From the NCBI GenBank assembly GCA_963755715.1, contig CAVWLW010000009.1, positions 17,347 through 81,346 on the forward strand: a stretch of 64,000 bases of DNA, given 5' to 3'. How positions within the stretch are numbered: the first letter of the stretch is position 1; each line of letters opens with the position of its first letter. Of this stretch, positions 29,745 to 58,601 are shown piece by piece. The translations under genes were made by a program, and so were the position numbers. Below the pieces are notes generated by a model. That model had not been told where the DNA came from and ran no database searches. It saw only the letters and a list, made by a program, of their open reading frames with translations. This stretch comes from an uncultured delta proteobacterium (GTDB taxonomy: Bacteria > Desulfobacterota > Binatia > UBA9968).

Positions 29745-30801
29745 CTAGTTCAAGCCAAATATCCCGTTGTAGAGCTTGATCAGCTCCACTTGCTTTTCGT
29801 CCCATTCCACCGACGGTATCTGCATCTTCTTGCCCTTTAGGTCGGCGAAATAGTTGCCATCTTTTCGGCTCACCCAGCGCCCCTGGCCGGCCATTAGATC
29901 TTGTCCTGCTTTAGAAAGCAGGAAATCCACGAACAGCGCGGCCGCGTGCGGATGCGGCGCGCCGGCCGCGATCGAAATCGTCGTCGGCGTTTTAACCGCG
30001 ACGAACGGCTCGGAAAAGATGAAATCCGCCGGCGCCTTGGCGTTTTTCATCTGCATGATTTCTTCCGGAAAGGCATCGATGACGATCGGAAACTCTCCGG
30101 CCACGGCGAGCTGCACCAAGAGCGTCGGACCGCGCCGCAAGTTGAGCTGCTGCTTGGACAACCTGCCGGCGAGCTCCAGCGCCTTGCCGCGGCCATAATA
30201 GTCGATCAGCGACGCCAGCCAATCGTAATCCGTGGTATCCATGCCCAATTTATCTTTCCAGCGCGGATCGAGCAGATCTTCGAACGATTGCGGCGCCTTG
30301 TCGCGCGCAACCATGCGGGTGTTGAAAAGAAACACTCTCGGCTGAGCATAGATGCCGCTGATAAAGCCCTCCTTGTCGGTAAAGCCTTCGCGCAGCGACG
30401 CTCGCAGTGGCGTCCGATACCGCGCCACCGCGCCGGCCTTTGCCATCACGCCGACGTAGGAGCGGCGCGTGTTGATGATATCGGCGCGCGGCTTTTTCGT
30501 GCGATGCTCGACGAGCAATTGCTCCAGCTGCCGTCCGGCACCGCCGGGTTGGAATCTGACTTTCACGAATGGATACTTGCCCTCGAAGGCTTTGATCAGC
30601 TCACCTGCCCGGTCGTTCGCCATCGCCGCGTACCAAACCAGCTCGCCCTCCTTGCGCGCCTCTTTCTCAAGCGCATCGCCGCGAATTTTTCCGCCATGCG
30701 ATTAACTTGATCCAACCGTTCTTCCACCGATACCGCTGCGGCGGAACCGGGCTGCACAGTAGAAGACTAAGACGACGAAGATCGCGCAATGACCCTTTCA
30801 T
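29745..30801 (-). CDS. Extracellular solute-binding protein, AfuA-like (5' end frameshifted)
   Basis: ARKEGELVWY, FEGKYPFV, APQSFEDLLDPRWK, APHPHAAALFVDFLLSKAGQ. Confidence 0.85.
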
Positions 30802-30860
30802 CTAAGCTGCCACCTCTGAAATATCTTTTGTTTCACGTCCACCCTTTCGCCTCACGGCCG

Positions 30861-31853
30861 TCATTGCAGCTTGGCGAAAAAACCCTTGCGGTCTAGCTCA
30901 GCAATGACGCTGCTGTCCATAAATTCCGAAGACCTTTTTATTTTTGAAAAGCGCATCGGTGAACGCGATGCTTTCCAGTTCAAGCTGCACCGCCTCTTCG
31001 CGCGGATACGGTTTGCTCGGCATTCGACCCAACGAAGCGTCATAAATAACATCAAGCCGCTTGCGGTCTGTGACCTTCATCTGTTTGGCAATCACTTTTA
31101 CGAGTTAAGTCTTTATTTCTCTTTCCGAGCGCGATGGCTTCGCCGCTCGCCATAAAAAACGCGCGCAACAAGTCCGGGCGAATTCTTCATCATATCGGTC
31201 CGCGTCGATAAATCGCCGACGGTGTTGTAGATCTTCATGTCTTCCAGATCGGCGAAAATCTCTATTTTCACTTTCGCCTGAGTCTCCGCCGCTAAAATAC
31301 TTTCCGGACTGCCGATCGTGCCATCCATGCGTCCTTGCAGCATCAGCATGATTCGCTTGTCCGCTTCGCCGATGCCGGTGGCGAGAATCTTCACGTCCTT
31401 GTCCGGCGTCCAGCCAAGCTTGGACAACGCGCGTCGTAGGGCAAAATCGGTGGTGCTGCCAATTCTACTCGTACCTACGACTTTGCCGCGGAGATCGGTC
31501 ACGCCGGGATTGGCGACTAATTTATAAGTCGTGCTGCCGAAGCTGCCGACGATCACCACCGGCAAGCCGCGGCCCGCGGCGACAATGGTCGCCGAACCCG
31601 AGCCGCTGACAATATCGACCTCGCCGCTCACCAATGCGCTGATCGCAGTGTTCCCCGAGGGAATATTGATCAGCTTGGCGTCGAGGCCATACTTTTCGTA
31701 GAGCTTGGCTTCTTCAGCGATCCAGAGTGGCAAGCGAATACCCGAAGTCGTCGCATAGGCGATCTTGATGGGAACAACTTGGCTTTCGCCCACTGCGACA
31801 AACGCCGCGAGCGCAACGAGAACAAGGACAAATAGCTGCGCGCGCATTTTCAT
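30861..31853 (-). CDS. NMT1/SsuA-like substrate-binding protein (frameshifted at ~31170)
   Basis: Signal peptide; LPLWIAEEAKLYEKYGLD, ALVSGEVD, DLRGKVVG; C-terminal SKPYP and ELDRKGFF in other frames. Confidence 0.85.
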
Positions 31854-32882
31854 GATTTCCAGTCCGAAGCGTTGCTGATCTGCTCGATACCGCCGAGGAG
31901 CTCATGTCCCGGTTGGCGCGACCACACGGAAACGAGTTGAGCAGCGTGCTCGCCGTCGTTGACATGTTGATGCACGATCATCGGCGGCACACAAATCAAA
32001 TCTCCTTCCTCCCACGGATGCTGGGTGCCTTCGTGCAAGATCGTAGCCGCGGCCTTTGACCACCAACAAAAGTTCCTCGAAAATATGGCGATGCTCGCCG
32101 CTACACTCTCCGGGGCAATTTCCTGCGCCATCAAGTCAACGCCGCTCGCGGCCACTTCGGCCCATCGGCTGATGTAGAATTTAAGTTTTCCCTGCCGGGT
32201 CATTTCCCACGAGCAGTCCGCGTCGCGGATCACGCGCGGATTTTCTCGCTCGAATCGATTTTCGTCGGCGAGCCTGGATAAAAACCAGTCGTAGCGCGTT
32301 TTACCGGCCGTGGAGCGTGCGAACTTGCCGTCGTGACTTGAAACAGCGCGCGCTATCTTTTGCTCTGATGCCGACTCGTTTCAGATCTTTCACCGTTAGA
32401 CATGGGATCCCGCCACAAAAGCCCTTGCCCATGCCAGAGCCTGATCTGCGGCAGCCAGGCGCGAAAGCCTTGTGGCGAATCGCGATAAATTGGTACGTCG
32501 TATACGGCGGAATGATAACCACGTCTCCGGCCGCAAAGGAAACTCTAAGACCATTCTGAACGGACTCGCCGCTCCCCTCGATAATATAAGCGATCAGTGA
32601 GGGCAGCATGCGCCGTGGCTCGGTCCGCGCTCCAGCTCGCAGGTCGAGAAAACCGCAGGTCAACATGCTCAGCGGAGCCACGGTGTAACGACTGAAAACG
32701 CGCATGTCTCCGAGCGCAAACTCGCCCTTGGCGAACATCGCGGGCTTGATCACGCGCGGCAGGATATTGATCCGCTCTTGCTCGCGCTTTTGTTTAACGA
32801 AGCGCGCTTCGTAATCGTAGTAATGCTCTGCTGTGATCCCGGCTTGGCTGCCTTCGTCTGCTTTCCGATTTTTCTGCGCCAT
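31850..32882 (-). CDS. Bicupin protein (several frameshifts); N-terminal cupin lacks His ligands
   Basis: YIIEGSG...GDVVIIPPYTTYQF; reconstructed SGEHRHIFEELLLVVKGRG...WEEGDLICVPPMIVHQHVN. Confidence 0.75.
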
Positions 32883-32887: not shown

Positions 32888-34036
32888 CTAATCTTGTCCG
32901 CGCTGCGTATCCGAGTATTCCGGCGCGTCTTCCAATTGTTCGATCCCGCCTAGTCCGAGCGCCACGCCGGCGCTCGGCATCGACGACAACAGCAAGGCTG
33001 GAAGGTCAGGATCGGCATTGAAATGTTGATGTTCCGCCATCGCAGGGATGCTGACCAGATCTCCCGTTTCCCAATCCCAGCGCGTACCATCGTGAACGTC
33101 GTTGCCGCGCCCTTTGATGACGAGCACTTGCTCCTCCGTCATATGCCGGTGTTTGCCGGATCGGCTGCCAGGTGGAATCTCCTGCATGTAGAGCCAGACT
33201 CGCCGCGCCGCGCTGTTGATCTCGGGGTGGGTGAACCATTTCAGCCGTCCCTGCGCGCACCATTCCCACGGTTGCTCTTCGTAAGCGATCACGTGCGTCA
33301 CGGTGTTGCAGAAAACACTCTCGTCGTGAAATAGCTTCAAATAGCGATCGTAGGTATTTTCGACTGACCCATTCCAGGAAGTCGCTTCCTTGCGCGCGCG
33401 AAAGACGCCTTCGGTTTTCTGATCGGCGCCGAGCATCACGTCGATATCTTCTTTGATCCCCAGCACGCCTTTTTTAATCCGGTAGCCGATCAATTTTCCC
33501 TGTTCGTCGTGAAGCGGCTCAGTTCCTTTGGGAAATGTCGGGTTGTCGCCGAATTTGATTTGCTCGCGCTTGGTTAAACCCATCAGGCTGAACAATCGGC
33601 TTTGCGGCACGAAGATCTGGCAACCGGCATCTTCGTCGCCGCCATGCTGGTGAATCGTGAACGGCGGAACCACCAGCATATCGTAGGTGGCGAACGAATA
33701 AGTCTTGCCGTCGTTGATTTCCCAGCCTCGGCCGCTGAGACAGAACAAGGTCGGCGCGCTAATATGGCGGTGCGCGCCGCGCGACGGCGCATGGGGTTGA
33801 ATATCCGAGAAGTGAGACGTGAGATCGTACACCGGCGCGCGCTTGAGAATATCGTAACAAACGATATCGCCGGTCTGATGCGGGCTGCTGCTGCCCATCA
33901 CCGTCCCCTGCACGGGAAGCAGCTTGACCACGCGCGGCAATTGTTCTTTGATCGATTCTTCGTGCCGTTGATGCGCCAACGGATCGCTGGCTTCAAGACT
34001 CCCTTCCGCCTCCCAGGGCCATCGTTCTTCCATCAT
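32888..34036 (-). CDS. Bicupin protein, gentisate 1,2-dioxygenase-like
   Basis: HRHISAP...VPPFTIHQH and KHRHMTEE...WETGDLVSIPAMAEHQHFN. Confidence 0.85.
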   Translation of the reverse strand: MMEERWPWEAEGSLEASDPLAHQRHEESIKEQLPRVVKLLPVQGTVMGSSSPHQTGDIVCYDILKRAPVYDLTSHFSDIQPHAPSRGAHRHISAPTLFCLSGRGWEINDGKTYSFATYDMLVVPPFTIHQHGGDEDAGCQIFVPQSRLFSLMGLTKREQIKFGDNPTFPKGTEPLHDEQGKLIGYRIKKGVLGIKEDIDVMLGADQKTEGVFRARKEATSWNGSVENTYDRYLKLFHDESVFCNTVTHVIAYEEQPWEWCAQGRLKWFTHPEINSAARRVWLYMQEIPPGSRSGKHRHMTEEQVLVIKGRGNDVHDGTRWDWETGDLVSIPAMAEHQHFNADPDLPALLLSSMPSAGVALGLGGIEQLEDAPEYSDTQRGQD

Positions 34037-34108
34037 CGAACCTCGTTTTTCTCTATGAACTTGCCCATGACATCCGCCCAATGAAAGTCTCTATACCGTA
34101 TCTCACAG

Positions 34109-34237: not shown

Positions 34238-35233
34238 CTATTTCTTATACAGTCCGTCGATAAAACCCTGCTTATCGAGTTTCTCGATCACCTTCGTCTG
34301 AATGAACTGAGCCGGACTCGCCTTCCGCGCATCCAATCGCTTCGACCAGTCGAGAATCGTTTGAATGCCCTTCGCGGAGGGATACGGTTTCTCCGCGAGC
34401 AACTTCACGTAGAAACTATAGGCCTCTTGCAGTTCCTCAGTGTTTTCTAGTTTCATATACTTCTTCATAATCATCGGGGCTTTGATTTTTTCGGTCTTAT
34501 AGAAATGAATCCCTTCGATCACCGACTTGATCACCATTTCCGTGGCGAATGGTTCCGCGTCGTAGAACCTGCGGCTCGTCGTCAGCGCGGCGTTAGGCAG
34601 TTCCGAATCTCTCATTCCGGGAAGATCTTCGAAAAAATTGTAACCCGCCCGACGCGCCGCGAAAGTAAACGGCGGTGCCAACGTCGTCGCATCCACCTGA
34701 CTTAATTGCAATGCGCCGAACCGGCTGGACGAAGGACCCACGGCGAGATAGCTCACGTCCCGTTCAGGGTCAAGTCCGGATGCCGCAAGAATCATTTTCA
34801 GTGACAACATCGCAGGACCAATTAAACTGTTGACTGCGAGTTTTTTTCCTTTGAGTTGAGCGAGGTCTTTAATCTCCCGCCTTGTCACGAGCACTTGAGG
34901 CTCTTGATTGATCGGACTGGCGACGATGAAGATATCCGCGCCGCCGAGCACGGCGTCAACGACACCGCCGCCGCCGGCATTGATAAAGTTGACATCGTTG
35001 CTCACCAGCGCCTGCGTGGCGACCACGCCGCCGCGCATATAGACCAACTGCGCATTGATGCCGTTCTTTTTGAAAAACCCCGCTTCCTTCGCAATCCAAA
35101 CCGGCGCGTACTGTGGCGAAATCGAAGTGTAGGCAATCGTGACGTTGGCAAGCTTCTCTTGGGCGGCGAAGACTGCGTCACCCGAAAGCCAACTAAGGAA
35201 GAGGAGCGCAATGCAAGAGCCGAGTTTCGACAA
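34238..35233 (-). CDS. NMT1/SsuA-like substrate-binding protein
   Basis: PVWIAKEAGFFKKNGIN, LKGKKLAV, EKPYPS, KLDKQGFIDGLY. Confidence 0.9.
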   Translation of the reverse strand: MSKLGSCIALLFLSWLSGDAVFAAQEKLANVTIAYTSISPQYAPVWIAKEAGFFKKNGINAQLVYMRGGVVATQALVSNDVNFINAGGGGVVDAVLGGADIFIVASPINQEPQVLVTRREIKDLAQLKGKKLAVNSLIGPAMLSLKMILAASGLDPERDVSYLAVGPSSSRFGALQLSQVDATTLAPPFTFAARRAGYNFFEDLPGMRDSELPNAALTTSRRFYDAEPFATEMVIKSVIEGIHFYKTEKIKAPMIMKKYMKLENTEELQEAYSFYVKLLAEKPYPSAKGIQTILDWSKRLDARKASPAQFIQTKVIEKLDKQGFIDGLYKK

Positions 35234-35247: not shown

Positions 35248-36128
35248 CTATGAAGACCGCTTGGACTCGACCCGTCGTAAACCTTCCGCGATCGCCCGAC
35301 GCAGGATCGCACTCAGCGCCTTTTTTTTGTACGCGGCTGAGCCGCGCAGATCCTCGATCGGCTCAGCGCCTTCTTGAATCACGTGGCCGGCTTGCTCGAT
35401 CAGCTCTGAAGTAATTTTCTTCCCACGCAGCAAAGCTTCAACCGGGACGCCTTTCGTCGGCGTCGAATGAGCGCCGGTGACACCGATGCCGATTTCATTA
35501 CAGACGGCGTTCGCATCGAGACTCAACTGCACGGCAGCACTGGCGATCGCAAAATCGCCCGCCACTTTTTCGAGCTTCTGATAGACGCCCGCGCTGCTTT
35601 TATCAGGCAACGGAAACACAATCTCGGTTAGAATTTCGTCGGGTTCCATCGTGGTAGTATAAGCGAAGGTAAAAAACTCATCGGCCGGGATGACACGCTC
35701 GCCGCGCGCGCCGGCGCATTTCAACTGAGCATTTAGCGCCAGCACAACCGCGCCGTAATCCCCGCCGGATCGGCCTCCGCCAAGCCGCCGCCGATGGTGC
35801 CCCGGTTACGTACTTGCGCGTCGCCGATCTCGCTTGCTGCTTCACGGAGAATCGGCAACCTATCGCCGATCAGGCGGGATTCCTCGATCTGCACGTGACG
35901 CGTCATCGCGCCGAAGCGAACCGTGCCCGCTTCTTCTCGAATATAATTCAGATCCGCGATCCGATGGATGTCGATCAGATATTTGGGCCGGGCGACGCGT
36001 AGCTTCATCATCGGCACCAAACTCTGGCCGCCGGCGAGAAGTTTGGCGTCATCACCGTATTGGCGCAAGAACTCGATCGCTTCGCCGATTCCTTTTGGCG
36101 CGAGATATTCAAAAGCCACTGGATACAT
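35248..36128 (-). CDS. Xanthine dehydrogenase family FAD-binding (medium) subunit, CoxM/CutM-like (frameshift at ~35760)
   Basis: FEYLAP, AKLLAGGQSLVPMMKLR, QVRNRGTIGG, DLRGSAAYK. Confidence 0.9.
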
Positions 36129-36138: not shown

Positions 36139-37161
36139 TTACCTCTTGCTATATTCGTAGCGCATCGGGTCCCACTTGCTGGCGCGAATATCGTCGTAAG
36201 CTTTTTTCACGAAGCTGAAATCGTAGACCTGATCAAGGGTCACCGGCCCTTTGATCCGGCTGGTCGCTCCGACGGCGCGCATTTGCTCGCGCACCCGTTC
36301 GATATTGGTCGTCATCACCTCTTCGCTGGCGCGGCCGACCTGCGCGAGATCGGAAGCCTGTTTATCGCGCTCGCGCCAGATCTCTTTGGCTTCGTTCAAG
36401 TCATTGATGCGCAGCACTTCCATAATAAACTTCGCCGACTCATTGGCGTTGCGATGATAAAAGAGTTGGCCCTTGAGCGTCGCTTTGACCACCCGATACA
36501 CCTCATCCGGCGAGTTTTTGATTTTGTCGTCGTTGGTTTCGAGGTTAGCGCTGAGCGCCGAGACATAATCGCCGCTGTAGGCGAGGATGCGAAAGCCCTT
36601 CGATTGGGCGATGCGTGCGTTGCCGATCGTGATCATGGTGGCGTCCACCGTCCCGGCCAGGAGCGCGCCGAAGCGAACCGACGGTTCACCGAGCGCGCGC
36701 ATTTGCACCGTATCGACGGCCACGCCATTTTTGCTGAGCAGCTCACGAAACAGCAGCGTCGAATTGCCCGACGAGTCGGAGATCGCCACGGTCTTGCCGT
36801 TCAACTGCTTGATATTCGTGATCTTGGGCGACACGACAAGATACTGTGACGGCTTGTCGGTGCTGACCTGGAGAATTTTCATGCGCGCGCCGCCGAGGAT
36901 CGCCGGAATCGACCCTCCGTTGCCGTAATCGACGGCGCCGCTAACGACAACCTGGGTCGTCACGGTGCCGCGGGTGACGATCACATCGACATCAAAACCT
37001 TCTTCCCGGTAGAAACCCAATCGTTGCGAAATCGTATAAGGAACCAGCGATTCACCCGGGGCTTTCGACGCGATGCGAATTTTCTTCAGCGTCTGCGCGT
37101 CGACGAGCTGAGATGCCGCACAAACAATTAACGCTGTCGCCAAAATTAATTTTGCTAGCAT
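36139..37161 (-). CDS. NMT1/SsuA-like substrate-binding protein
   Basis: Signal peptide; GFYREEGFDVD, VVSGAVDY, LNGKTVAI. Confidence 0.88.
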   Translation of the reverse strand: MLAKLILATALIVCAASQLVDAQTLKKIRIASKAPGESLVPYTISQRLGFYREEGFDVDVIVTRGTVTTQVVVSGAVDYGNGGSIPAILGGARMKILQVSTDKPSQYLVVSPKITNIKQLNGKTVAISDSSGNSTLLFRELLSKNGVAVDTVQMRALGEPSVRFGALLAGTVDATMITIGNARIAQSKGFRILAYSGDYVSALSANLETNDDKIKNSPDEVYRVVKATLKGQLFYHRNANESAKFIMEVLRINDLNEAKEIWRERDKQASDLAQVGRASEEVMTTNIERVREQMRAVGATSRIKGPVTLDQVYDFSFVKKAYDDIRASKWDPMRYEYSKR

Positions 37162-37182: not shown

Positions 37183-38205
37183 TCACCGCTTGGCGTATTC
37201 ATAGCGCAGCGGATCCCACTTGCTCGCTTGGATCTCGTCATAGGCTTTCTTGACAAAACTAAAGTCGTAAACCTGATCCAGGGTAATTTTTTCTCTAAGC
37301 CGCGCCGCGGCGCCGACCATTTTCATCTGATCGCGCACACGCTCGATGTTGGTCATGAGCGCGTCCTCCGAGGCCCGGCCCACCTGCGCCAACTCGGATG
37401 CCTGCTTGGTGCGCTCGCTCCAAACTTCCTTGGCGTCGTCCAGATTGGACAGACCGGCGACTTCCATGATGAACTTGACCGCCTCCTTAGGATTGCGATG
37501 AAAAAACAGCTGGCCCTTTAAAGTCGCCTTGACCACGCGATAAACCTCGCTGGGCGAGTTTTGAATTTTATCATCGGTGGTTTCCAGGTTGGCGCTCAGC
37601 GACGAGACATGGTCACCGCTGTAAGCGAGAATGCGAAATCCCTTGGTTTGCGCCTGCTTGGCGATCGCGTAGGAAAGCATGGTCGCGTCCACCGCGCCGC
37701 TCAAGAGCGCGCCGTAGCGCACCGCTTGCTCGCCCAACGGGCGCATCTGCAAGTTATCGATTGCCACGCCATTTTTGCTCAGCATCTCGCGCATCAGCAG
37801 TGTTGAATTGCCCGACGCGTCGGAAACGGCGATGCTCTTGCCCGCCAGTTGCTTCATGTTGGTGATCTTCGCTGAAGTGACCAAATGCTGCGCCGGCTTG
37901 TCGGTGTTGATCTGCAAGATTTTCAGCCGCGCGCCGGCAAGCATCGCCGGGATCGATCCGCCGTTGCTATAATCCACCGCGCCGCTCACAACGACCTGCG
38001 TCGTCACCGTCCCGCGCGTCACGATCGCGTCGACATCCAACCCTTCTTCTCTATAGAAACCCAACCGCTGCGAAATCACGTAAGGCAGCAATGATTCGCC
38101 CGCCCCTTTTGATGCGATACGAATCTTCTTGAGCGCTTCGGCGCCGAACGCCTGCGCGGTCGCCAGCTCAAGCAAGAGAGCGAGTATGATTAGACGATGC
38201 CACAT
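37183..38205 (-). CDS. NMT1/SsuA-like substrate-binding protein (tandem paralog of 36139..37161)
   Basis: Same length (340 aa) and long shared blocks, e.g. VTRGTVTTQVVVSGAVDY, VYRVVKATLKGQLF, TLDQVYDFSFVKKAYD. Confidence 0.88.
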   Translation of the reverse strand: MWHRLIILALLLELATAQAFGAEALKKIRIASKGAGESLLPYVISQRLGFYREEGLDVDAIVTRGTVTTQVVVSGAVDYSNGGSIPAMLAGARLKILQINTDKPAQHLVTSAKITNMKQLAGKSIAVSDASGNSTLLMREMLSKNGVAIDNLQMRPLGEQAVRYGALLSGAVDATMLSYAIAKQAQTKGFRILAYSGDHVSSLSANLETTDDKIQNSPSEVYRVVKATLKGQLFFHRNPKEAVKFIMEVAGLSNLDDAKEVWSERTKQASELAQVGRASEDALMTNIERVRDQMKMVGAAARLREKITLDQVYDFSFVKKAYDEIQASKWDPLRYEYAKR

Positions 38206-38931: not shown

Positions 38932-38940
38932 GATTGCCCC

Positions 38941-39412
38941 TCACTTGGTAAAATTCGTCGCCGCTTCTTTGATCGCCGCGACGATATTGCCGTAACCGGT
39001 GCAGCGGCAGAGATTGCCGGAAATCGCCTTCTTGATTTGCTCTTCAGTCGGCTTGCTTCCTTTGCTGAGCAACCCGTAAGCCGACATGAGCATGCCGGGC
39101 GTGCAGTAGCCGCACTCCACCGCGTCGTTTTTCCAAAATGCTTCCTGCAGCGGATGCAATCGTTTGTCCTGCGCCAAACCTTCGACGGTGACGATTTCGT
39201 CGCCGTCAGCTTGGACGGCGAAGACCATGCACGATTTCACCGCCGTGCCGTTCCACATCACGGTACACGCGCCGCAGCGGCCGACGACGCAGCCCAAATG
39301 GGTGCCGGTCAATCTCAAGCGTCGCGCAAAAAATGCGCCAAGTAGAGTTCTCGGCTCAGCTTCGCCCGAATACGATTTGCCATTGACGTGTTAAAGAAAT
39401 GGTTTTAAGCAT
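38941..39412 (-). CDS. (2Fe-2S)-binding small subunit, CoxS-like (5' frameshifts)
   Basis: GTHLGCVVGRCGACTV, ECGYCTPG, GNLCRCTGY. Confidence 0.88.
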
Positions 39413-41786: not shown

Positions 41787-41829
41787 AAGAGTTTTCTGGG
41801 ATGCCTTGCTAGGGATGGTTATTTTCAGC

Positions 41830-47121: not shown

Positions 47122-47184
47122 CAGTTCCTAACCGACAGCTTGGACCTCTTAAACGGCTTGAACGATTTGAACTCTTAAACTCAT

Positions 47185-48161: not shown

Positions 48162-48172
48162 GAGGCTCCCAC

Positions 48173-48569: not shown

Positions 48570-48582
48570 CCGCGTGGTGGAA

Positions 48583-50031: not shown

Positions 50032-50060
50032 TCTTTCTACTCCATCAGGCTAACGAAGAA

Positions 50061-50146
50061 TTCACCACGAAGGCACGAAGTTCACGAAGGTTGATAAAAA
50101 TCCAGATTTCTCTTTCCTTCGTGCCCTTCGTGTGCTTCGTGGTGAG
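50061..50146. repeat. CACGAAG 9-nt-periodic palindromic element
   Basis: tcaccacgaaggcacgaagttcacgaagg ... ccttcgtgcccttcgtgtgcttcgtggtga. Confidence 0.8.
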
Positions 50147-50154
50147 TAATCCGT

Positions 50155-51198
50155 TCAGATCTTAAACTGCCCCTTCTCGCATACCACCGTATTGTCGATG
50201 GTCATCGTGATGTAGTCGGTGATCCCTTCCAGTCTTAAAATACTATTGATCTTGCCGCGATCGGCGCCGTGGCCGATGCCAAAATGCATCGCGCCATAAT
50301 GTTTTTTCCATTCGCGCACCGAGTCGTTGTCTTTCTGGCAAAGCTTGTTCAGACCAATTGAGATCTCGCCGCCGACGAGCCAAGAGTTGTCGTCGCCATA
50401 AGTTTTCACAAACCAGCGCACTTGATCCGCCTCGGTCTTGCCTTGAACATCGACACAGCGGCCGTTCTCGATCACCAGCGTGACCGGATGCTTCCAGCGG
50501 CCGGGCGGATACTGTGCCGTCACTTCCCACACGACTTTGCCATTGGCGGTACCCGGCACCGGCTCCACGTGAGCTTCACCCCAAGGCCAGGTGCCGCCGG
50601 CCAATCTGCCGTTCTTCGGATTGCGCCCAAACGGAATTCGTCCCCACCAGTTAGCAAAAAAGTCAGGCTCCAAACCGCCGATCTCTGCGGTGAGATCGGT
50701 GCCGTTGTCGGCTTGCACGCGAATTTTCTTGCCCTTGTCCTGCAGCTCGCCGACTTTGCGGCCGAGCGCGCAAATCTCTTCGACGTCAGCCATCGACGTC
50801 CGGCCCCCGCCGTCGGTGAGGATTTCGACCGTCAATTCTTCCATCAGCCACATGGGCCCGCCGCAGGCTTGGCGCATGGCTCGCGCGCCGGGCGTGGAAT
50901 TGCTCATCGCCGTCGTCGTCAGCGCGACGACTACATGGGCGCCGCGCGCCGCCTCGATCGCCATCTGCGGCACGTCGGCAAAGTGCCGCGGCAAGCGCGG
51001 CCACATGCACAGCATCGCCTCGCCGCCCTTTTCGTTGATCGCCGCCATCATGCACTGCCAGATCAACGGATCCATCGCATCGTCGGTAATCACCAGCAGC
51101 TTGTCGCCGGGCTGCACCGAGCGCACCGGAACCTGAAAGCTTTTCATCACCGACATAATCCGCGTGCTGGGACTGCCGAACCGTTCCATCATGACCAT
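50155..51198 (-). CDS. M29/AmpS (COG2309) fold protein with altered metal ligands
   Basis: WPWGEAHVEPVPGTANG, GEISIGLN, WKKHYGAMHFGIG, LRLEGI; GGAGG RBS; paralog of 41830..42888. Confidence 0.75.
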   Translation of the reverse strand: MVMMERFGSPSTRIMSVMKSFQVPVRSVQPGDKLLVITDDAMDPLIWQCMMAAINEKGGEAMLCMWPRLPRHFADVPQMAIEAARGAHVVVALTTTAMSNSTPGARAMRQACGGPMWLMEELTVEILTDGGGRTSMADVEEICALGRKVGELQDKGKKIRVQADNGTDLTAEIGGLEPDFFANWWGRIPFGRNPKNGRLAGGTWPWGEAHVEPVPGTANGKVVWEVTAQYPPGRWKHPVTLVIENGRCVDVQGKTEADQVRWFVKTYGDDNSWLVGGEISIGLNKLCQKDNDSVREWKKHYGAMHFGIGHGADRGKINSILRLEGITDYITMTIDNTVVCEKGQFKI

Positions 51199-51249
51199 AA
51201 CTTTACCTCCATCAATTTTGCTTGTTCAGTTTCATTGCATGCTTGCCCA

Positions 51250-52218
51250 TCACGGAGTCCATTGCGCCCGCTTCAGCTCCTCTGCCACTTCTCTGGCGAT
51301 GCTGAAGTCGAACAGCTCCTTAATATCAAGCTCGCGCTTAGCCACGCTGTCCTCTCTCGCGCGCTCGACCAGCCGTTTCAGATAGGAATCTTCCAGCCGG
51401 CCGCCGGCGTTGTAGCGGCGCATTTCGTCCTTGTGCAGTTGCGCGGCTAATTTTGGGTCCTCCAGGCGCAAAGCTTTTTGTAAGATCGCCGCGGCCTGCT
51501 CCGGTCTCTGGCGAAAAAACAGATGGCCTTTCATCACGCCGCGGACAAAGCCCGTCACCAAGGCGCGGTCGCGCGCCAACGTGCCGTCGAGCGCGATCAT
51601 CGGCCCGCTGACGTAGGGCGGCGACTCGTAGTCAAGCTCGCGGTATCCCTGTTCGAGAGCCGTGATCGAATAGTTGCCGACCAGCAAGGTCCCTTGCACC
51701 TTGTTCGATCGCAGCGCGGCGTAACGCAAGTCTGCTGTACCGATTTGCAACATCATGACGTCTTTCATCGCCACCAAACCGTGCTGCGAAAGAATCTCGC
51801 GCGAGAGCTTGTCGGCAAAACCGCCGAAGGTGCTGATCGCCATGGTCTTGCCCTTGAGATCCGCGTAGCTTTTGATTTCCGGCGCGACAATCACCCGATG
51901 CGCCAAACCGCGCGCCGCGTTGTAGAGCACCTTGCCCTTGAGCCTTCCTTCGACCATCAGATCGAACGCCGTGGGATTGGTCGTGAAGGCGATCTGCTCG
52001 GCGAGCAACGCCGTGATGCACAACTGGCCGCGTGCGGCGAGAATCTCGACATGAAGTTTCTCCTGGGCAAAGTAGCCGCGCTCTACCGCGACGTTTAAAT
52101 AAGTAAACGCCGGCGAAAGTCCCGGCGTACACACGCGCACATTGCGCGGTTGGGCGGCCGTCCAACTCGGCGAGAAACAGATTACAGAAAAGAGGATTAT
52201 GAATCGTTTTGGATTCAT
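51250..52218 (-). CDS. NMT1/SsuA-like substrate-binding protein
   Basis: Signal peptide; VAVERGYFAQEKL, IKSYADLKGKTMAISTFG, RYAAL. Confidence 0.88.
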   Translation of the reverse strand: MNPKRFIILFSVICFSPSWTAAQPRNVRVCTPGLSPAFTYLNVAVERGYFAQEKLHVEILAARGQLCITALLAEQIAFTTNPTAFDLMVEGRLKGKVLYNAARGLAHRVIVAPEIKSYADLKGKTMAISTFGGFADKLSREILSQHGLVAMKDVMMLQIGTADLRYAALRSNKVQGTLLVGNYSITALEQGYRELDYESPPYVSGPMIALDGTLARDRALVTGFVRGVMKGHLFFRQRPEQAAAILQKALRLEDPKLAAQLHKDEMRRYNAGGRLEDSYLKRLVERAREDSVAKRELDIKELFDFSIAREVAEELKRAQWTP

Positions 52219-52229
52219 ATGGGTTCGGA

Positions 52230-52256
52230 GGGCGGACACGCAGGTCCGCCCCTACG
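52230..52256 (-). repeat. GTAG-type REP element
   Basis: gggcggacacgcaggtccgcccctacg is the reverse complement of the 10247-type element. Confidence 0.8.
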
Positions 52257-52287
52257 GTACAATTACGTTCGCAAAATCAAACTTTCA

Positions 52288-55117
52288 TCAGTTCGGTCGT
52301 AGGCGTTGTTTTGCCTGCGCGATTGCGTCGTGAAGCCTTTCTGGACTGACGGGAATCCGATCCACCTTTACTTTCAAATCGGACAGCGCGTCTTCGATCG
52401 CCAATGCCACGGCAGTCGGCGCCGGGATCGTGCCGCCCTCGCCGGCGCCTTTGCAGCCGAGCGGATTGAGCGGCGTCGGCGTTTCGATGTGCACGACGTC
52501 CATGCGCGGCACTTCCATCGCGCCGGGCAAGTAGTAGTCCATGTAGCTGCCGTTTGAGAATTTGCCCGCTCTCGTCGTGAATCACTTCTTCGTAGAGCGC
52601 GTTGCCGATGCCATGCGCCACGCCGCCATGAATCTGGCCATCGACGAGCATCGGGTTGATCACCGTGCCGCAATCATGCGCCACGGCGTAACGCTGGACT
52701 TCCACGTGACCGGTTTCCTCATCGACTTTGACGACCGCGATATGGACTCCGTTGGAATGGGTCGAGCGGCGCGGCGAATAATAAACCGTCGCCTCCAGGC
52801 CGGGTTCGATGCTGCGATCGACCATAAAACCCGAGACGCGGTTTGCCGCTTCGTGGGCCAACATTCGTAAAGTGATTTTCTTTTCCGGCGTCCCCTTGAC
52901 GAAAATTTCGCCGTTGACCAAATCCAGATCTTCGCTGCGGCATTCCAATTTATTCGCCGCCAACTGAAGCGCCTTCTGGCGCAATTGCTCCGAAGCCTGC
53001 GCGATCGCGTTTCCCGCGGTCACCATTACTCGACTGGCGAAAGTTCCGACGCCGTAAGGAATCGCCGCGCTGTCGCCGGTAACGACATCGACGTTTTTGA
53101 AATCGACGCCGAGATAATCGGCGCAGATCTGGCCGAGCGCGGTCTCCTGTCCCTGTCCCTGCGATGCCGCGCCGGTGAAGACATAAATTTTGCCGTCGGT
53201 GCCGACCTTGACGCTGCCGCCCTCGTAAGGACCGAATCCGGTGCCTTCGACGTACGCCGCGATGCCGACGCCGAGGCGCGTGCCGCGTTTGCGCTCCGCC
53301 AATTGCGCTTTACGAAAGTCGTCGTAACCGATCATCTTGAGCGCTTCTTCCAAGCAAGCGGGATAGTTGCCGCTGTCGTACTCGAGCGGATTGTTGTCGC
53401 GATAAAGAATGCCGACGTTGTACGGATACTCGTCTTTTTGGATGAAATTACGCCGGCGCACTTCGGCGGGGTCCATGCCGAGCTCGCGCGCAACCCGGTC
53501 CATGATCTTTTCCATCACGTAGACCGCCTGCGGCCGGCCCGCGCCGCGCACCACCATGGCGGTTACTTTGTTGGTATAAACCGCTTTGAACTCCAACTGC
53601 AGATTGGGAATTTTGTAAGGTCCGGGAATTGTCGCCAAGGAGATCCAAGGAACGACCAAGCTGGTGCTGTAAGCGCCGGTATCGTAGAGAAAGAAGTTTT
53701 TTAGCGCGACGACTTTGCCGTCCTTGTTAAACGCCGCTTCGACCCAATGGGTTTGATCGCGCTCCTGGCGGCTGGCGATAAAATGTTCGCGCCGGTCCTC
53801 GATCCACTTGACCGCGGTGCCGAAACGCACGGCGAGCCAAGGCACGAGAAAATTCTCCGGATAGAAGCCGCCCTTGGGCCCGAAGCCGCCGCCCACCCGC
53901 GGCGCGATCACGCGCACTCTATGCTCGGGCATGTCCATCAATTGTAATAGCGTGCGGCGAATCCGGTGCGGACCCTGACACGAAGCCCAAATCGTTAGAA
54001 AGCCGGCCTTCGGATCGAATTGTGCGACGATACCGCGGGTCTCAATCGCGTGGCAGCCGCCGCGATGCACCCGCAGGGTTTCTTTGATCACATGATCCGC
54101 TTCCGCGAACGCTTTCTCGACGTTACCCGTCGACTGCTTCATGAAACCCGCGACGTTGTCCGGTTCGCTTTCGTGCACCAGCGGCGTATCCGGCGCCAAG
54201 GCCTTTTCAATATCGACGCATGCCGCGGTGACTTCGTAATCGACTTCGACCAATGGCGCGGCGTCTTCGGCCAAATGGCGCGCCTTCGCGACGATCACGG
54301 CGACCGGTTCGCCGACGTAGCGCACCTGATCCTTGGCCATGGGAAATTCGGTGAGCGGTTTCAGATTCGGATGAGGGATCGTCAGCGGCAACTTGCGCAC
54401 CGCGCCGAGATCCTCGAAGGTAATGACGTCGACAACGCCGGGAGCGCGCTTGGCGGCCGCGCTATCGATGCGCAAGATCTTCGCGCGCGCATGAACGCTG
54501 CGCACCACATACGCGTGCAACATGCCGGGAAAATCGATGTCGTCGACGTAGACGCCTTTGCCGGATAACAGCTCGTTGTCTTCGGCGCGTTCCACCCGCG
54601 CGCCGATGAATTTTGAAGGCGTCGCGTGATCATGATGCGCTTGCGACGCAACTTTCCCGCCCGAAGCTTCGACGATGGCATCGACGATATTTTGATAACC
54701 GGTGCAGCGGCAAAGATTGCCCGACACCGCTCGGCGCGCCTCGGCATCGGTAAGCGGGCCGCTGTTGCGCAACAAAGCGTCGGCGGTCATTAAAAATCCC
54801 GGCGTGCAAAAACCGCACTGGAGCGCGTGATGTTTTTTGAAAGATTGCTGCAACGGTCCGAGCGTATCCCGCGTCGTCAGCCCTTCCACTGTGGTGATCT
54901 CGGACCCATCAGCCTGTACCGCCAGCATCAAACAGGAGCGCACCGGAGCGCCATTATGCTGCACCGTGCAGCTGCCACACACGCCATGCTCGCAGCCGAC
55001 ATGCGTGCCGGTTAGAGCCAATTCGTGGCGCAAGAAATCGGCGAGATTCTGCCGGCACTCGATTTCTCTTTCAATCGGCTTACCGTTGACGATCAATCTT
55101 ATTTTCTGCAAGTCCAT
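52288..55117 (-). CDS. Fused (2Fe-2S) + molybdopterin-binding subunit, xanthine dehydrogenase family (frameshift at ~52555)
   Basis: GCEHGVCGSCTV, QCGFCTPG, NLCRCTGY, then VGGGFGPK, VVRGAGRPQA, QGQGQET, GTFASR, DCGTVINP; tail GCKGAGEGG in another frame. Confidence 0.9.
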
Positions 55118-55145
55118 TCTCAATTTCGACGTGGTCAGGATTTAC

Positions 55146-55240
55146 CCCTCTTTGAAAAAGAGGGGCTCGGGGAGATTTTCCGAGTGACCCACAGCTCTAT
55201 CACAGCCGAAATCTCCCTTGTTCCCCCTTTTCAAGGGGGA
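55146..55240. repeat. CCCCTCTTT/AAAGAGGGG REP-like inverted pair
   Basis: cccctctttgaaaaagaggggctcggggagattt ... aaatctcccttgttcccccttttcaaaggggga. Confidence 0.7.
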
Positions 55241-55285
55241 AAGTTTTCACGACACCCGCTGTTTGTCTGCGCCGTAACCATGTCA

Positions 55286-56158
55286 TCAGTCGCCAATTCG
55301 CGCTTTTTGCAATGCTTCATTCAATGCTCGCCGTGTCAGGACATTTGCCAGCGACTTTCGATAGGCCGCGCTACCGTGGATGTCCGAGCTTGGGTCGATG
55401 TTGGCGGCGATTTCGCCGGCCGCTTTGTTGAATAAATCCGGCGCCGCTTTTTTGCCGATGAGAATTTCCTCGATCCAACGCTCACGCCACGGTTTGTCGC
55501 TGACGCCCGTCAAAGCAATGCGCGCGTCGGTAATTTGCTCTTTCGCGAGCGTCAAAGACGCGGCGACGCCGACGATGGCGAAGTCGCCGAACCGCCGCGC
55601 GAATTCGACGAACGAAGAGCCGGAATTTGTCGCTTGCTCAGGAACCGAAGCTTCGAGAACCATCTCATCGGCGCCAAGCGCCGTGCTCAAGTAGGATTGA
55701 AACAAGTCTCGCGCAGAAATTTGCCGCGTCCGCGTCGAATTAGCGACCGTGACCGAGCCGTCCAGCGCGAGCAACACCGCCGGCAGCTCCGCCGCCGGAT
55801 CGGCGTGCGCCAGGCTGCCGCATAAGGTGCCGCGATTGCGCGTTTGCTCGTAGCCGACGTGAGTCATGGCTGCGGCGAGGAGAGGACACCGTTGTCGAAC
55901 CAGTGCATCGCTGAGCAAACGAGATTGGCGCGCCAGACAGCCGATCTTGAGCGCGCTGTTTTCACTGCGGACATAATCCAAGCCGTCGATGAAATTGATG
56001 TCGATCAGATGCGCCGGCTCAGCCAGCCGAAAATTCATCATCGGCATCAAGCTTTGGCCACCGGCGAGAATCTTGCCTTCCTCGCCGACTTCCTTCAATA
56101 ACGTCAGCGCTTCGTTGACTTCGCGTGGCCGGTGGTAGTTAAAGTCTGCTGATTTCAA
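55286..56158 (-). CDS. Xanthine dehydrogenase family FAD-binding subunit, CoxM-like
   Basis: FNYHRP, KILAGGQSLMPMMNFR, TRNRGTLCGSLAHADPAAE, DIHGSAAYR. Confidence 0.92.
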   Translation of the reverse strand: MKSADFNYHRPREVNEALTLLKEVGEEGKILAGGQSLMPMMNFRLAEPAHLIDINFIDGLDYVRSENSALKIGCLARQSRLLSDALVRQRCPLLAAAMTHVGYEQTRNRGTLCGSLAHADPAAELPAVLLALDGSVTVANSTRTRQISARDLFQSYLSTALGADEMVLEASVPEQATNSGSSFVEFARRFGDFAIVGVAASLTLAKEQITDARIALTGVSDKPWRERWIEEILIGKKAAPDLFNKAAGEIAANIDPSSDIHGSAAYRKSLANVLTRRALNEALQKARIGD

Positions 56159-56167
56159 TTGGGTTGC

Positions 56168-56338
56168 CTATTTCTTGATTTCGAAATTGGCCGCATCGAT
56201 TTTTCCGTCTTTCCTGGGATATCTCGCCATGCACACCGGACAGAACATGGAGAAATCCTCGCCCTCGTCGTAAATCATTTTGTGGACGTTGTAGCGATGG
56301 CCGCATTTCGGACAGGTAATGTAAAATTCCGGTGGCAT
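56168..56338 (-). CDS. 56-aa zinc-ribbon microprotein (not in the ORF track)
   Basis: AAGGAG RBS; MPPEFYITCPKCGHRYNVHKMIYDEGEDFSMFCPVCMARYPRKDGKIDAANFEIKK has two CPxC knuckles and fills the UbiD3-CoxM gap. Confidence 0.78.
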   Translation of the reverse strand: MPPEFYITCPKCGHRYNVHKMIYDEGEDFSMFCPVCMARYPRKDGKIDAANFEIKK

Positions 56339-56358
56339 GGATTGCTCCTTATTCGGAA

Positions 56359-56382
56359 GGGCGACCGCCGGTCGCCCCTACG
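56359..56382 (-). repeat. GTAG-type REP element
   Basis: gggcgaccgccggtcgcccctacg, followed by a CTTTGCG repeat fragment. Confidence 0.8.
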
Positions 56383-56411
56383 CCTCCTTTGCGTCCTTTG
56401 CGATTAGTTTC

Positions 56412-57846
56412 TTATCCCGCGACTTTTCCCAATTCTGCCGCGCTGACAAAATCTTCCAGACGAATCCGCGCCAGCGCGTCATCGGGCGGTTTGCCGATAT
56501 CCGGGAACGGCTTGCCCACCGGCTTGGTGGCGTCGATGATCAAGCCACCGACGCGCAGATACTTTTCCGTCGACGGATCCTGTCGATTGGCTTGGAGGTC
56601 ACGGATGATTTGCACCTGGGCGGAATCCGCGTCGGTTCGCGTGCTGATCGCAAACAAGACCATGCTCAAATCGAACGGATCGATGTCGTCGTCGACCAGA
56701 ATCACGTTCTTGATTCGGTCCGCGAAGCTGCCGAGCGCCATCAAAGCTAGCCGAGTGCTTTCTCCCGGCACTCTCGGCTTGAACTGAATTACGTAAGTGT
56801 AGGGACAGACTTGATTGACCGCGAGAACGCGCGGGTAACGCTCTTTGAGAACGCTGTAGACGTAAGATGCCGCGCCCAACACACCGTACGTGTCATGGCC
56901 GGTCCAATTGCCGATGCAGATAGGATCGTGCCGCATCAAAAACGCCGTCGGCGTAAATACCGGCTCGAGGGTCTGCGGCGAGTAGTAGCGCATCACATCC
57001 GCCCACGGCCCGCAGATTTCTTTTTTGGTCAGATCGATCATCCCTTCGAGGACGATCTCGGCATCGGCGGGAATGAGAAAATCTTCGCCCAGCGTACACC
57101 GATGGCGTGACCCGCACGGCGCCGTCCATCAAGCCGCCGGCGAATTCATATTCGTCGACGCCCCAGGCGCAATTGGAGCCCGCCGCGACTTCGAACGCGG
57201 GATGATGACCGAGCGCAAAGGCCACTGGCATTTTGTCGTGGCCTTTGGCGCGATACCGATTCATATATTCCATCAAATGGCGCGGATTGATGCGCGCCGA
57301 GGCGTGCTCGGGCGAGTGAACATGGAGCCGGTGCCAAGAGAGATTGTAACGGCCCGAATCCGGCTCTTTGCCGATGCCGATGGCGCATAGCCAACCGGGC
57401 TTGGCGTCGAACTCGTCCTTGCGATAAACCGGTAGATCGAAAAGCGACATTTGTGAGCCGGTCACCACGGTTTGGTGGATCGGCGCTTCTGCCGGCGGAA
57501 TGCGTACTGGCTTGGTCGTCAAACGATTGCGCCGCGAGAATTCCTGTGCCAGATCCTGAAACTTAACTTCGCCGTCGAGATCCATGGCCGCCGCTTGCTT
57601 GCGCAGCGTGGCCAGCTCGGAAAACAACAGCTCGCCTGGCCAAAGTTTTCCGCTGAGTGTCTTGAAGCCGCGGAAAAGAGTAGCCGGTCGCTTGCCGCCG
57701 GCTTTCAGTTTGGCGAGGAAGGCCGCCGCGTCGCACTCGGCGAGGTCGAACGTTTTACCCCGGGTATCGACGCGCAACACCTCGCCGGGCCGGCGGTCAT
57801 CGAGAATCTTTAAAAAAGTGCGCAGATCTTTCGAGTGAGCCTGCAT
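56412..57846 (-). CDS. Divergent UbiD family decarboxylase 3 (frameshift at ~57100)
   Basis: KDLRTFL, RYNLSWHRL, PVAFALGHHP, DEYEFAGGL, CGPWADVMRYY, LVDDDIDPFD, IIDATKP. Confidence 0.85.
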
Positions 57847-57878
57847 GGATGACTCCGTTGTCAACGACGCGCGTCGAT

Positions 57879-58601
57879 TTAACGCGCGCGCACCGTTCGC
57901 GTTCGAGCCTCGATCTGCTTGAGCAATATCGTCTTGACGTTTTGCAGATGAGACCTCATGAGCTCCTGCGCTCGTTTGGCATCTTTGCGCTTGATCGCCT
58001 GAAATATTTCCTGGTGATGGCGCAGCACCGCAAACCCGCCGTGCGTAACGCCTTCGATGCGCCGCTTGAGCACGAGCTTCTCACAGGTGTCGTTCAAGAC
58101 GCGGCTCACCGCGCTATTGCCGGCGATCTCGGCTAGCTCCACGTGAAAATCCTTATTGATAATGTAGCGGTCGACGAGCGGATCGTTGGCCACGATCGCT
58201 TTGCGGGACGACTTCACACTTTGCTCCAACGCTTTGATTCCGTCCGGGGTAATGCGCCGGATCGCCTCGTCGATGCAGTAGGCTTCCAACGCGCTCCGCA
58301 AACCGAACAGTTCCTCGACTTCCTCGGCGGTCATTTCGCTCACTCGATAACCGCGATTGGTCAGCCGCGTGACATATCCCTCCTGAGCCAATCGTGACAG
58401 CGCTTCGCGGATCGGCGTCTGGCTGATCTTCAACCGCAACACCAGCTCCTCGTGCGACAATCGCTGACCCGGCACAATCTCATGCTTGAGAATCGTCGCT
58501 TTGATTTTTTGATAAGCGATCTCGGCAAGACTAAGATACTCCACGCGGGTTTCCTTTGCGGGTTCGTGGAAAGTCTTTTGGCTTGCTTCCCAACGCTGCA
58601 C
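57879..58601 (-). CDS. GntR family transcriptional regulator (FadR/FCD subtype)
   Basis: PGQRLSHEEL, ISQTPIREALSRL, ELFGLRSALE, NKDFH, HQEIFQAI, MRSHL. Confidence 0.92.
   Translation of the reverse strand: MQRWEASQKTFHEPAKETRVEYLSLAEIAYQKIKATILKHEIVPGQRLSHEELVLRLKISQTPIREALSRLAQEGYVTRLTNRGYRVSEMTAEEVEELFGLRSALEAYCIDEAIRRITPDGIKALEQSVKSSRKAIVANDPLVDRYIINKDFHVELAEIAGNSAVSRVLNDTCEKLVLKRRIEGVTHGGFAVLRHHQEIFQAIKRKDAKRAQELMRSHLQNVKTILLKQIEARTRTVRAR

Follow-up and report, generated by a model that had tools for sequence, protein, structure and literature searches.

The described system that appears nearest in logic to the gene block reported here, and the best precedent for the mechanism we propose for it, is lumazine cluster I of Cupriavidus sp. 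LA-1. In the excerpted text of its description (PMC12391406), a three-subunit dehydrogenase of the xanthine oxidoreductase (XOR) family hydroxylates the N-heterocycle twice with water, an enzyme of the zinc amidohydrolase fold opens the ring and closes it again, giving xanthine-8-carboxylate, and a UbiD enzyme decarboxylates this product; besides a UbiX of its own, the cluster has a pterin deaminase and an alpha/beta isomerase of the Amidohydro_2 family. A second reference point is PhdA of Mycolicibacterium fortuitum (PDB: 7PDA), a phenazine-1-carboxylate decarboxylase that acts in catabolism according to the portion of the source used here (PMC10850782). The block we compare with these systems comprises 26 successive minus-strand genes, about 29 kb from a GntR gene (58601) down to position 29745, in a 64-kb window of a Binatia-type genome. 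The window is the whole stretch of 64,000 nucleotides analysed (contig C9, 17347-81346; genome 7.4 Mb, 76 contigs, 93.6% complete, 4.2% contaminated), and all coordinates below are window positions on the minus strand unless marked otherwise. Binatia are abundant, uncultured soil bacteria, and the sequencing runs that contain window sequence are labelled as soil or rhizosphere metagenomes. A further relative is the hmf cluster of Cupriavidus basilensis, which we take to unite the furoyl-CoA dehydrogenase HmfABC and the UbiD enzyme HmfF in one catabolic cluster, and which thus presumably shares with the block the pairing of a xanthine dehydrogenase (XDH)-family enzyme with a UbiD.

As far as the excerpted description goes (PMC12391406), lumazine cluster I and the block are alike in combining an XOR-family dehydrogenase, a metal-hydrolase-fold enzyme and a UbiD, and are set apart by the M29/NicX-fold protein, metallo-beta-lactamase-fold (MBL) hydrolase, OsmC-like protein and bicupins that the block carries instead. 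Since both enzymes occur in that excerpt, the union of an XDH-family hydroxylase with a UbiD is not unprecedented. Pfam and NCBIfam scans of the minus-strand open reading frames (ORFs) between 29745 and 58601 (32 ORFs in the Pfam scan) agree on 26 consecutive genes, with the content, order and strand stated in the first-pass annotation. The scanned ORFs contain neither the Amidohydro_2 pair, deaminase and UbiX of lumazine cluster I, nor the CoA ligase and enoyl-CoA hydratase that we take to define hmf, nor the FAD monooxygenase, amidase and maleate isomerase that presumably define nic, and no equivalog cut-off is reached. The combination as a whole is indeed not a described pathway: nic, hmf, lumazine and phd each fail to explain the entire set, in which all but one of the enzyme types belong to known families, the exception being the unstudied NicX-fold family. 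On an evenly balanced judgement, we read the block as an accessory catabolic island of a soil bacterium, built of two modules, for the uptake and breakdown of ring-shaped organic acids that probably contain nitrogen. Elsewhere in the window, 27 kb from the block, there is an Amidohydro_2 gene (2212-3186).

Module A runs from GntR through UbiD3, a zinc ribbon, CoxM, a CoxS-CoxL fusion (CoxSL), a substrate-binding protein (SBP), M29a and UbiD2 to a luciferase-like monooxygenase (LLM), an alpha/beta hydrolase and OsmC. Module B comprises OsmC, UbiD1, M29b, CoxL, CoxS, MBL, SBPs, CoxM and bicupins. We compared 49 loci with an M29-like gene from species-representative genomes (L series) and the genomes of congeners and relatives (G series). 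Module A was found in G011, G012, G016, L059-L063, L065 and L068, module B in G007, G011, G012, G017, L022-L027, L051 and L070, and the two are joined also in L022 and L068. The first-pass annotation had staked its reading on conservation of the neighbourhood in other genomes; the modules do recur, in congeners and in more than 20 loci of Binatia-type metagenome-assembled genomes (MAGs).

The modules also occur separately. G012 has M29a-UbiD2-SBPb-LLM-hydrolase-OsmC on contig C275 and UbiD1-CoxL-CoxS-MBL-SBP-SBP-CoxM-SBP on contig C196, and G011 and G016 carry GntR-UbiD3-zinc ribbon-CoxM plus CoxSL-M29a-UbiD2. In G007, GntR stands directly ahead of OsmC-UbiD1-M29b-CoxL-CoxS-MBL-SBP-CoxM-SBP-bicupin. 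Module B is intact in L027, with OsmC (183 aa), UbiD (471), the M29-like protein, CoxL (790), CoxS (154), MBL (221), SBP (343), CoxM (291) and two bicupins (378 and 335). The core of UbiD, M29-like protein, CoxL/S/M, MBL and OsmC extends to Acidobacteriota and Chloroflexota MAGs (L051, L064, L066 and L067). The M29-like gene occurs in 24/90 genomes of the family (10/31 of the high-quality ones) and in 11/30 congeners, a tally that takes in the unpublished genomes G049 and G052. The block is thus a conserved but patchy accessory island.

Two complete sets of molybdenum (Mo)-pterin, 2x[2Fe-2S] and FAD modules of the XDH/XOR family were identified by Pfam. Set a consists of a CoxM-type FAD subunit (55286-56158; PF00941 and PF03450) and CoxSL (52277-55123; Fer2, Fer2_2, Ald_Xan_dh_C, MoCoBD_1 and MoCoBD_2). 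Set b consists of a CoxL-type Mo subunit (39356-41849), a CoxS [2Fe-2S] subunit (38941-39318) that is 154 aa long in L027 and lacks its N-terminus here, and a CoxM FAD subunit (35248-36128). The best curated models, glyceraldehyde dehydrogenase and group-5 carbon monoxide dehydrogenase (CODH), score below cut-off. The best solved relatives of CoxSL are 6-hydroxypseudooxynicotine dehydrogenase (PDB: 7dqx), CO dehydrogenase and quinoline 2-oxidoreductase (Qor, PDB: 1t3q). The active-site loops read VVRGAGRPQ in CoxSL and SLRGIGKAD in the G012 orthologue of CoxL. An assignment as aerobic CODH (form I CoxL) was rejected: the loops are without the cysteine motif of form I, which we take to be AYXCSFR, and the NCBIfam CODH models stay below their cut-offs.

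The three UbiD proteins fall into two types. UbiD1 (42964-44400) and UbiD2 (48583-50031) are 57% identical and are, by similarity, putative PhdA-like decarboxylases dependent on prenylated flavin mononucleotide (prFMN). UbiD_N, UbiD and UbiD_C exceed the Pfam cut-off in UbiD1, and all three domains are also recognised in UbiD2, with only UbiD_N narrowly below (23.9 versus 24.3). PhdA is the best solved relative of both over the full length and far ahead of the next match (E = 3.2e-107 versus 1.9e-52 for UbiD1; 3.1e-100 versus 8.2e-42 for UbiD2). UbiD3 (56412-57864) is 30% identical to UbiD1 and has HmfF (PDB: 6h6v) as its best solved relative, a weak match (E = 1.8e-38, 136 bits) in a block that has no CoA ligase or hydratase of the hmf kind. 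Here its UbiD domain is in one frame and UbiD_C in another, whereas the protein is whole in orthologues of 477-485 aa (L021:3200-4633 and L017:1093-2550). UbiD1 and UbiD2 share an EGPFGE loop, presumably the site of the catalytic acid pair in UbiD enzymes; the UbiD3 orthologues read EICGPWAD.

Neither phdB (UbiX) nor phdC is an adjacent gene here. The excerpted text of PMC13040415 describes PhdC as an HpaC-like prFMN maturase serving PhdA, and the window contains an HpaC-like flavin reductase of the same fold class (PF01613; 4389-4925, plus strand), 38 kb from the block. The only UbiX match over cut-off in the genome is at C54:75162-75707. Directly after UbiD3 follows a 56-aa zinc ribbon (56171-56341, CPKC...CPVC), an arrangement found in 4/4 loci with that flank (L017, L061, L063 and L068). 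The adjacency resembles that of the small partner proteins of VdcCD/LpdCD-type decarboxylases; against PDB sequences only generic zinc-ribbon noise was returned (best E = 0.0092), with no likeness to a solved chain, and the family scans likewise gave generic zinc-ribbon matches only.

The block is headed by a GntR/FCD transcription regulator (57879-58601; PF00392 and PF07729), whose orthologues stand ahead of UbiD3 in G011, G016, L061 and L068 and ahead of OsmC-UbiD1 in G007. Nine binding proteins are counted in the inventory, seven of them at the following positions. SBPa (51250-52239; PF09084, NMT1/SsuA-type), SBPc (37183-38205) and SBPd (36139-37161), both NMT1-type, have signal-peptide-like N-termini, and SBPb lies at 47185-48176. 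Two more are of NMT1 type, SBPe (34238-35233) and a shortened SBP (31113-31853), and the last (29745-30623), of SBP_bac_6 type, lacks its N-terminus; orthologues of these final two follow the cupins in L027 and L070. Downstream of SBPb come the LLM, a luciferase-like (flavin) monooxygenase (45949-47121; PF00296) that is also present in G012, G017, G016, L062 and L068, and an alpha/beta-fold hydrolase (45014-45820; PF00561) with weak PcaD/HsaD-type matches below cut-offs. The OsmC-like thiol protein (44376-44945; PF02566) marks the junction of the modules, and the MBL hydrolase (38263-38931; PF00753) lies within module B. A bicupin with two Cupin_2 stretches (32888-34081) is a candidate ring-cleaving dioxygenase, with weak 5-aminosalicylate/gentisate 1,2-dioxygenase matches below cut-offs. 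A second bicupin (31850-32882) is in two pieces here and a single 335-aa ORF in L027.

The genes are mostly separated by gaps of 5-160 bases, and no Pfam family matches at E <= 0.001 any of the 8 longest ORFs on the plus strand of this region. A promoter and terminator scan of 40000-59500 was uninformative (5 promoter-like sites versus 7.9 expected, 22 terminator-like versus 26.3). In NCBIfam, the OsmC-like protein and the zinc ribbon each match best a '(seleno)protein' model, below its cut-off (NF041052, 87.5 bits versus 95; NF041197, 20.7 versus 40), with Cys here in each case, and the two could form a thiol-redox pair beside the Mo enzymes. A second MBL-fold gene (58866-59603, plus strand), divergent from GntR, lies just outside the block. 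Further catabolic genes upstream include creatinase/M24-type hydrolases (12432-13622 and 14796-16070, plus strand) and a LigB-type extradiol dioxygenase (22023-22991, minus strand). A 505-aa ORF (10363-11880, plus strand) that joins SBP_bac_6 to a glyoxalase/dioxygenase domain represents an unusual fusion, unless an indel has merged two genes.

We propose the following route through the island. Each of the two modules encodes the same four kinds of component. Secreted NMT1/SsuA-type SBPs would capture the substrate, the permease being encoded elsewhere. A three-cofactor XDH-family Mo hydroxylase would hydroxylate an electron-poor carbon of the ring with oxygen from water, the ring carboxylate would be removed by a UbiD of the PhdA-like prFMN type, and the M29/NicX-fold metalloenzyme would act as a hydrolase or isomerase, not a dioxygenase, on the hydroxylated (lactam-like) ring. 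Later steps may differ between the modules: two bicupin ring-cleaving dioxygenases and the MBL hydrolase would serve module B, the flavin monooxygenase (LLM) and the alpha/beta hydrolase module A. The OsmC-like thiol protein could handle peroxide or redox-cycling by-products, and GntR/FCD may sense the acid. The likeliest substrates would be polycyclic or N-heteroaromatic carboxylic acids of the phenazine, quinoline, quinoxaline or pyridine type, a class named from the PhdA and Qor-type similarities and from nothing else. The two-module structure fits the parallel branches envisaged in the first-pass annotation.

Several observations weigh against this route. Phenazine has no free carbon adjoining nitrogen for XDH-type attack, and UbiD1 and UbiD2 resemble PhdA only moderately (339-362 bits along the full length). 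The Pfam scan of the block ORFs found no permease, ATPase, UbiX or Mo-cofactor insertion gene. None of the enzymes in the block reaches a curated NCBIfam cut-off, so all of the chemistry, including the order of steps and the substrate, is assigned by analogy. Several parts are dispensable, since G012, G017 and L070 have no M29b between UbiD1 and CoxL, and L022 has neither the LLM nor the alpha/beta hydrolase. To these points we add two that are treated below, the biotin-dependent carboxylases next to the M29-like gene in other bacteria and the frameshifts of the present assembly.

Within 5 kb of the M29-like gene, a UbiD is encoded in 18/49 loci and a biotin carboxylase and/or pyruvate-carboxylase-B-like carboxyltransferase in 17/49, and the two systems occur together in 0/49. 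Loci of the biotin type belong to Xanthobacter tagetidis, Lutimaribacter pacificus, Seohaeicola, Roseibium and MAGs of Burkholderiales and Actinomycetes. They run in the order regulator, M29-like gene, small protein resembling a biotin carboxyl carrier protein (BCCP), biotin carboxylase, BCCP, carboxyltransferase and TRAP or ABC transporter, and their M29/NicX-fold proteins are 57-65% identical. In the 21-kb loci concerned (L041, L043-L050, L057, L058, L032-L035 and L038) this stretch lies at about 10001-15000. Such a gene set looks like a biotin-dependent system that has not been described. In a quick tree, 18 rows with biotin contexts form a clade (support of 100 in the Shimodaira-Hasegawa-like approximate likelihood-ratio test) apart from 33 rows in UbiD/OsmC/CoxL contexts, and M29a groups with L061, L062 and L065 in a separate clade. 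Judged by these neighbours, the M29-like enzyme is linked to carboxyl-group chemistry in a direction that the two contexts leave open.

One alternative is therefore a carboxylating pathway, in which the UbiDs would carboxylate an enol or a neutral ring compound with CO2, and the product would be processed by the M29-like enzyme; the same step in Proteobacteria and Actinobacteria would be carried out by an ATP-driven biotin carboxylase. The biotin-carboxylase neighbours are easier to reconcile with a role in carboxylation than in decarboxylation, and the mutual exclusion of the two systems, the split in the tree and the inclusion of all M29-like proteins in one 50%-identity cluster point the same way. 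However, PhdA, to which UbiD1 and UbiD2 are closest among solved structures, is described as a catabolic decarboxylase in the part of PMC10850782 used here, and the Pfam scan of the block revealed no ATP-dependent activating enzyme. Moreover, contexts shared by kin are inherited by descent, so that the two clades of the quick tree amount to about two independent observations. We consider a carboxylating direction unlikely, while still giving it some weight.

A different objection to the catabolic island concerns the genome as a whole, which encodes about 51 UbiD loci (57 UbiD-domain matches), about 38 CoxL loci (46 MoCoBD_1 matches) and at least 150 NMT1/SsuA-type SBP matches (566 first-look candidates) in 7.4 Mb. 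Between 20 and 69 UbiD-domain matches were counted in each of 31 sampled genomes of the order, a tally that takes in the unpublished G005. UbiD genes lie within 10 kb of CoxL at 15/51 UbiD loci, versus 4.8 expected from random placement (2000 trials, maximum 15), an excess that speaks for the catabolic island. Because of these expansions and of this proximity, the association of UbiD, XDH-family enzymes and SBPs is a general theme of the lineage, and the co-occurrence singled out in the first-pass annotation is less special than it seemed. The NMT1 expansion we take to consist of orphan SBPs on a scale comparable to the Bug proteins of Bordetella. What is specific to the block are the M29-like, OsmC and MBL genes. 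The genome has four M29-like copies, three in the block and a distant one on contig C18 to which no Pfam family was assigned; OsmC and MBL are single-copy (at >= 60% cover), and OsmC adjoins the M29-like gene in 16/49 loci. The UbiD and CoxL genes of the block are not recent duplicates, since the next paralogue in the genome is 44% identical for UbiD1 (after UbiD2) and 35% for CoxSL.

In so paralogue-rich a neighbourhood, independent cassettes for different substrates might simply have come to lie side by side, with no common pathway. The genome-wide numbers are compatible with this, as are the separate occurrence of the modules and the fate of the third M29 copy, which is intact, a remnant or absent depending on the genome. 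Yet the core set recurs in the Chloroflexota and Acidobacteriota MAGs, the A+B junction recurs in L022 and L068, and the genes are tightly spaced on a single strand behind one regulator. We regard the lack of a common pathway as improbable, somewhat more so than a carboxylating pathway. A literature search found no paper on UbiD in Binatia or on this gene combination; among the papers listed for M29 proteins with biotin carboxylase none was pertinent, and for UbiD with XDH-family enzymes in catabolic clusters only the lumazine study was. UbiD, xanthine dehydrogenase and aromatics have 0 occurrences in the main text of the Binatota survey (PMC8262859), the principal genomic account of the phylum.

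The M29-like proteins are the least familiar part of the island. M29a (50155-51198) and M29b (41830-42888) are 57% identical, and a third gene (48176-48541) is a C-terminal remnant of about 120 aa, as suspected from the sequence in the first reading; the remnant is 93-94% identical to the intact copies in L022 and L059, and G012, G016, G011 and L062 have none. Matches to the M29 peptidase family PF02073 fall below its gathering score of 27 (21.4 bits for M29b, 15.6 for M29a), and the precomputed Pfam 38.1 label, in both the protein collection and the ESM Atlas, is PF26233 'NicX'. The AlphaFold2 model of M29b (mean predicted local distance difference test score 86.3) has NicX of Pseudomonas putida (PDB: 7cn3_A) as its best Foldseek match (template modelling (TM) score 0.73, E = 1.2e-22), followed by the M29 aminopeptidases PepS, AmpS and AmpT (PDB: 4icq, 1zjc and 2ayi; TM 0.58-0.64) and then CgnE/CgnB. 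NicX is also the sole significant sequence match of M29b in the PDB, at 22% identity.

The fold is thus shared with NicX, but the metal site is not. In the excerpted account of NicX (PMC7910607), Fe(II) is bound by His265, Ser302, His318 and Asp320, each essential and inactive as an alanine mutant. HMMER aligns these positions with E282, G311, R326 and E328 of M29b, 0/4 identical, and these four residues are invariant in 14/14 diverse members. The substrate-holding Glu177 and His189 of NicX lie opposite A186 and T207, in a gapped loop, and His105 is outside the aligned stretch. A profile search of 1.84 billion representatives returned 67 at E <= 1e-30 and 2148 at E <= 0.001. The whole M29-like family forms a single 50%-identity cluster (668 bits), and the next relative scores 273 bits. 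Among 113 distant full-length representatives of the superfamily, E is found at the positions of E212 (98) and E282 (102), H at those of H309 (107) and R326 (109), and D at that of E328 (111), presumably the E/E/H/H/D metal-site pattern of M29 peptidases. The M29-like family retains three of the five (E212, E282 and H309, kept in 98-107/113 representatives), replaces the remaining His and Asp (109 and 111/113) by invariant Arg and Glu, and adds the family-specific invariants H214, E216, H314 and D317; it is also about 60 residues shorter than the M29 aminopeptidases. An M29 aminopeptidase assignment was rejected on the subthreshold PF02073 scores and on these 3/5 metal-site positions.

We conclude from this pattern that the family is a derived, rewired member of a hydrolase-like superfamily, not a NicX-type dioxygenase. 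That these proteins are Fe(II) dioxygenases that open a dihydroxylated N-heterocycle, the ring-opening step proposed in the first-pass annotation, is very unlikely. The structural match, the sole PDB sequence match, the 'NicX' label and the alpha/beta hydrolase nearby, a gene type that we take the nic cluster to have as well, would favour it. The conservation of the hydrolase-like pattern in 98-111/113 distant representatives tells against it. The nic partner genes are absent from the block. With no Fe ligand identical to those of NicX, which are individually indispensable there (PMC7910607, in part), NicX-type ring opening is without basis. The two bicupin dioxygenases are better candidates for ring cleavage.

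The block is also damaged in this assembly, a feature overlooked in the first reading. At least seven genes are frameshifted (UbiD3, CoxSL, SBPb, CoxL, CoxS, CoxM of set b and the second bicupin), by about 11 single-base indels over 29 kb. UbiD3 is split by a 1-base insertion near 57096, SBPb by a 1-base deletion near 47727 and CoxM of set b by one near 35767, and CoxSL is out of frame for its last ~87 aa after ~52555; these four changes are unique to the window. Compared with its G012 and G017 orthologues, CoxL has at least four frame changes from single-base indels at ~40708, 40110, 39864 and 39484. Further ones occur at 39413 (CoxL) and 39389, where the N-terminus of CoxS is cut. The alignment of the second bicupin to L027 was too divergent to locate its frameshift. 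In congeners the orthologues of the broken genes are in one frame.

These lesions could be real and the block a decaying relic. The indel density and the M29 remnant are in line with decay, as is the intactness of rpoB and rpoC (8 kb), which counts against a uniform assembly error. However, mismatches of CoxL to its G012 orthologue are distributed as 55/761, 27/760 and 266/759 over codon positions 1, 2 and 3 (7.2, 3.6 and 35%), so this most damaged gene was evidently under constraint for nearly all of its divergence, and the genes are not old pseudogenes. We further compared window positions 38900-58700 with contigs from public soil sequencing, four runs that each belong to a different study. 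Contigs of run X1 are without the extra base at 39483 (24.1/24.1 depth), 39864 (19.3/22) and 52556 (18.5/18.5), those of X6 partly so at 39483 (3.67/8.77) and 52556 (8.49/12.8), and those of X7 at 39864 (4.71/12.8); X6 contigs also have the missing C at 47724 (18/18). In-frame alleles therefore exist in nature. Every listed site also had runs without the in-frame state: in the remaining runs over these sites the difference does not appear at that coordinate among the indels listed. The long pieces across SBPb carry 1 gap (X5, record 12) and 2 gaps (X7, record 29).

The Lnt gene (16148-17670, minus strand) is normally whole and is split in the window as well, with LNT_N and CN_hydrolase ORFs overlapping in different frames, which points to indel errors in the assembly. 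In the long-read MAG L068 (CAVUVW010000016.1), the GntR-to-CoxL part of the block shows short frames throughout all 21 kb, a fragmentation typical of uncorrected indel errors. The frameshifts of the window may be consensus errors or strain-specific lesions; that the block is being lost we judge to be highly improbable. Equally hard to sustain is membership in a described pathway for nicotinate/picolinate, hydroxymethylfurfural/furoate, lumazine/pterin or phenazine, with which the block shares enzyme families (an XDH-family hydroxylase, a UbiD, the NicX fold and an alpha/beta hydrolase) but, as set out above, neither the defining genes nor any equivalog match.

The catabolic island thus remains our preferred reading, and it provides a concrete, conserved enzyme set for testing the use of ring-shaped acids such as phenazines, quinolines and humus-derived compounds by Binatia. 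Its M29-like family is highly conserved and unstudied, with members from at least five phyla that all fall into one 50%-identity cluster, and because its gene neighbours switch between two carboxylase systems that are unrelated to each other, its function can be approached directly. More tentatively, and with a low probability, the NicX-fold family (E212, H214, E216, E282, H309, R326 and E328) may be a new enzyme class that always partners a (de)carboxylase, UbiD in Binatia, Chloroflexota and Acidobacteriota and biotin carboxylase in Proteobacteria and Actinobacteria, and that would make or consume the ring carboxylate by hydrolytic ring opening or contraction. If this is true, the class would correspond, without homology, to the Amidohydro_2 isomerase that acts in the lumazine pathway, and the island would encode a route for N-heteroaromatic acids that has not been described, in a lineage that is among the richest in UbiD known in bacteria.

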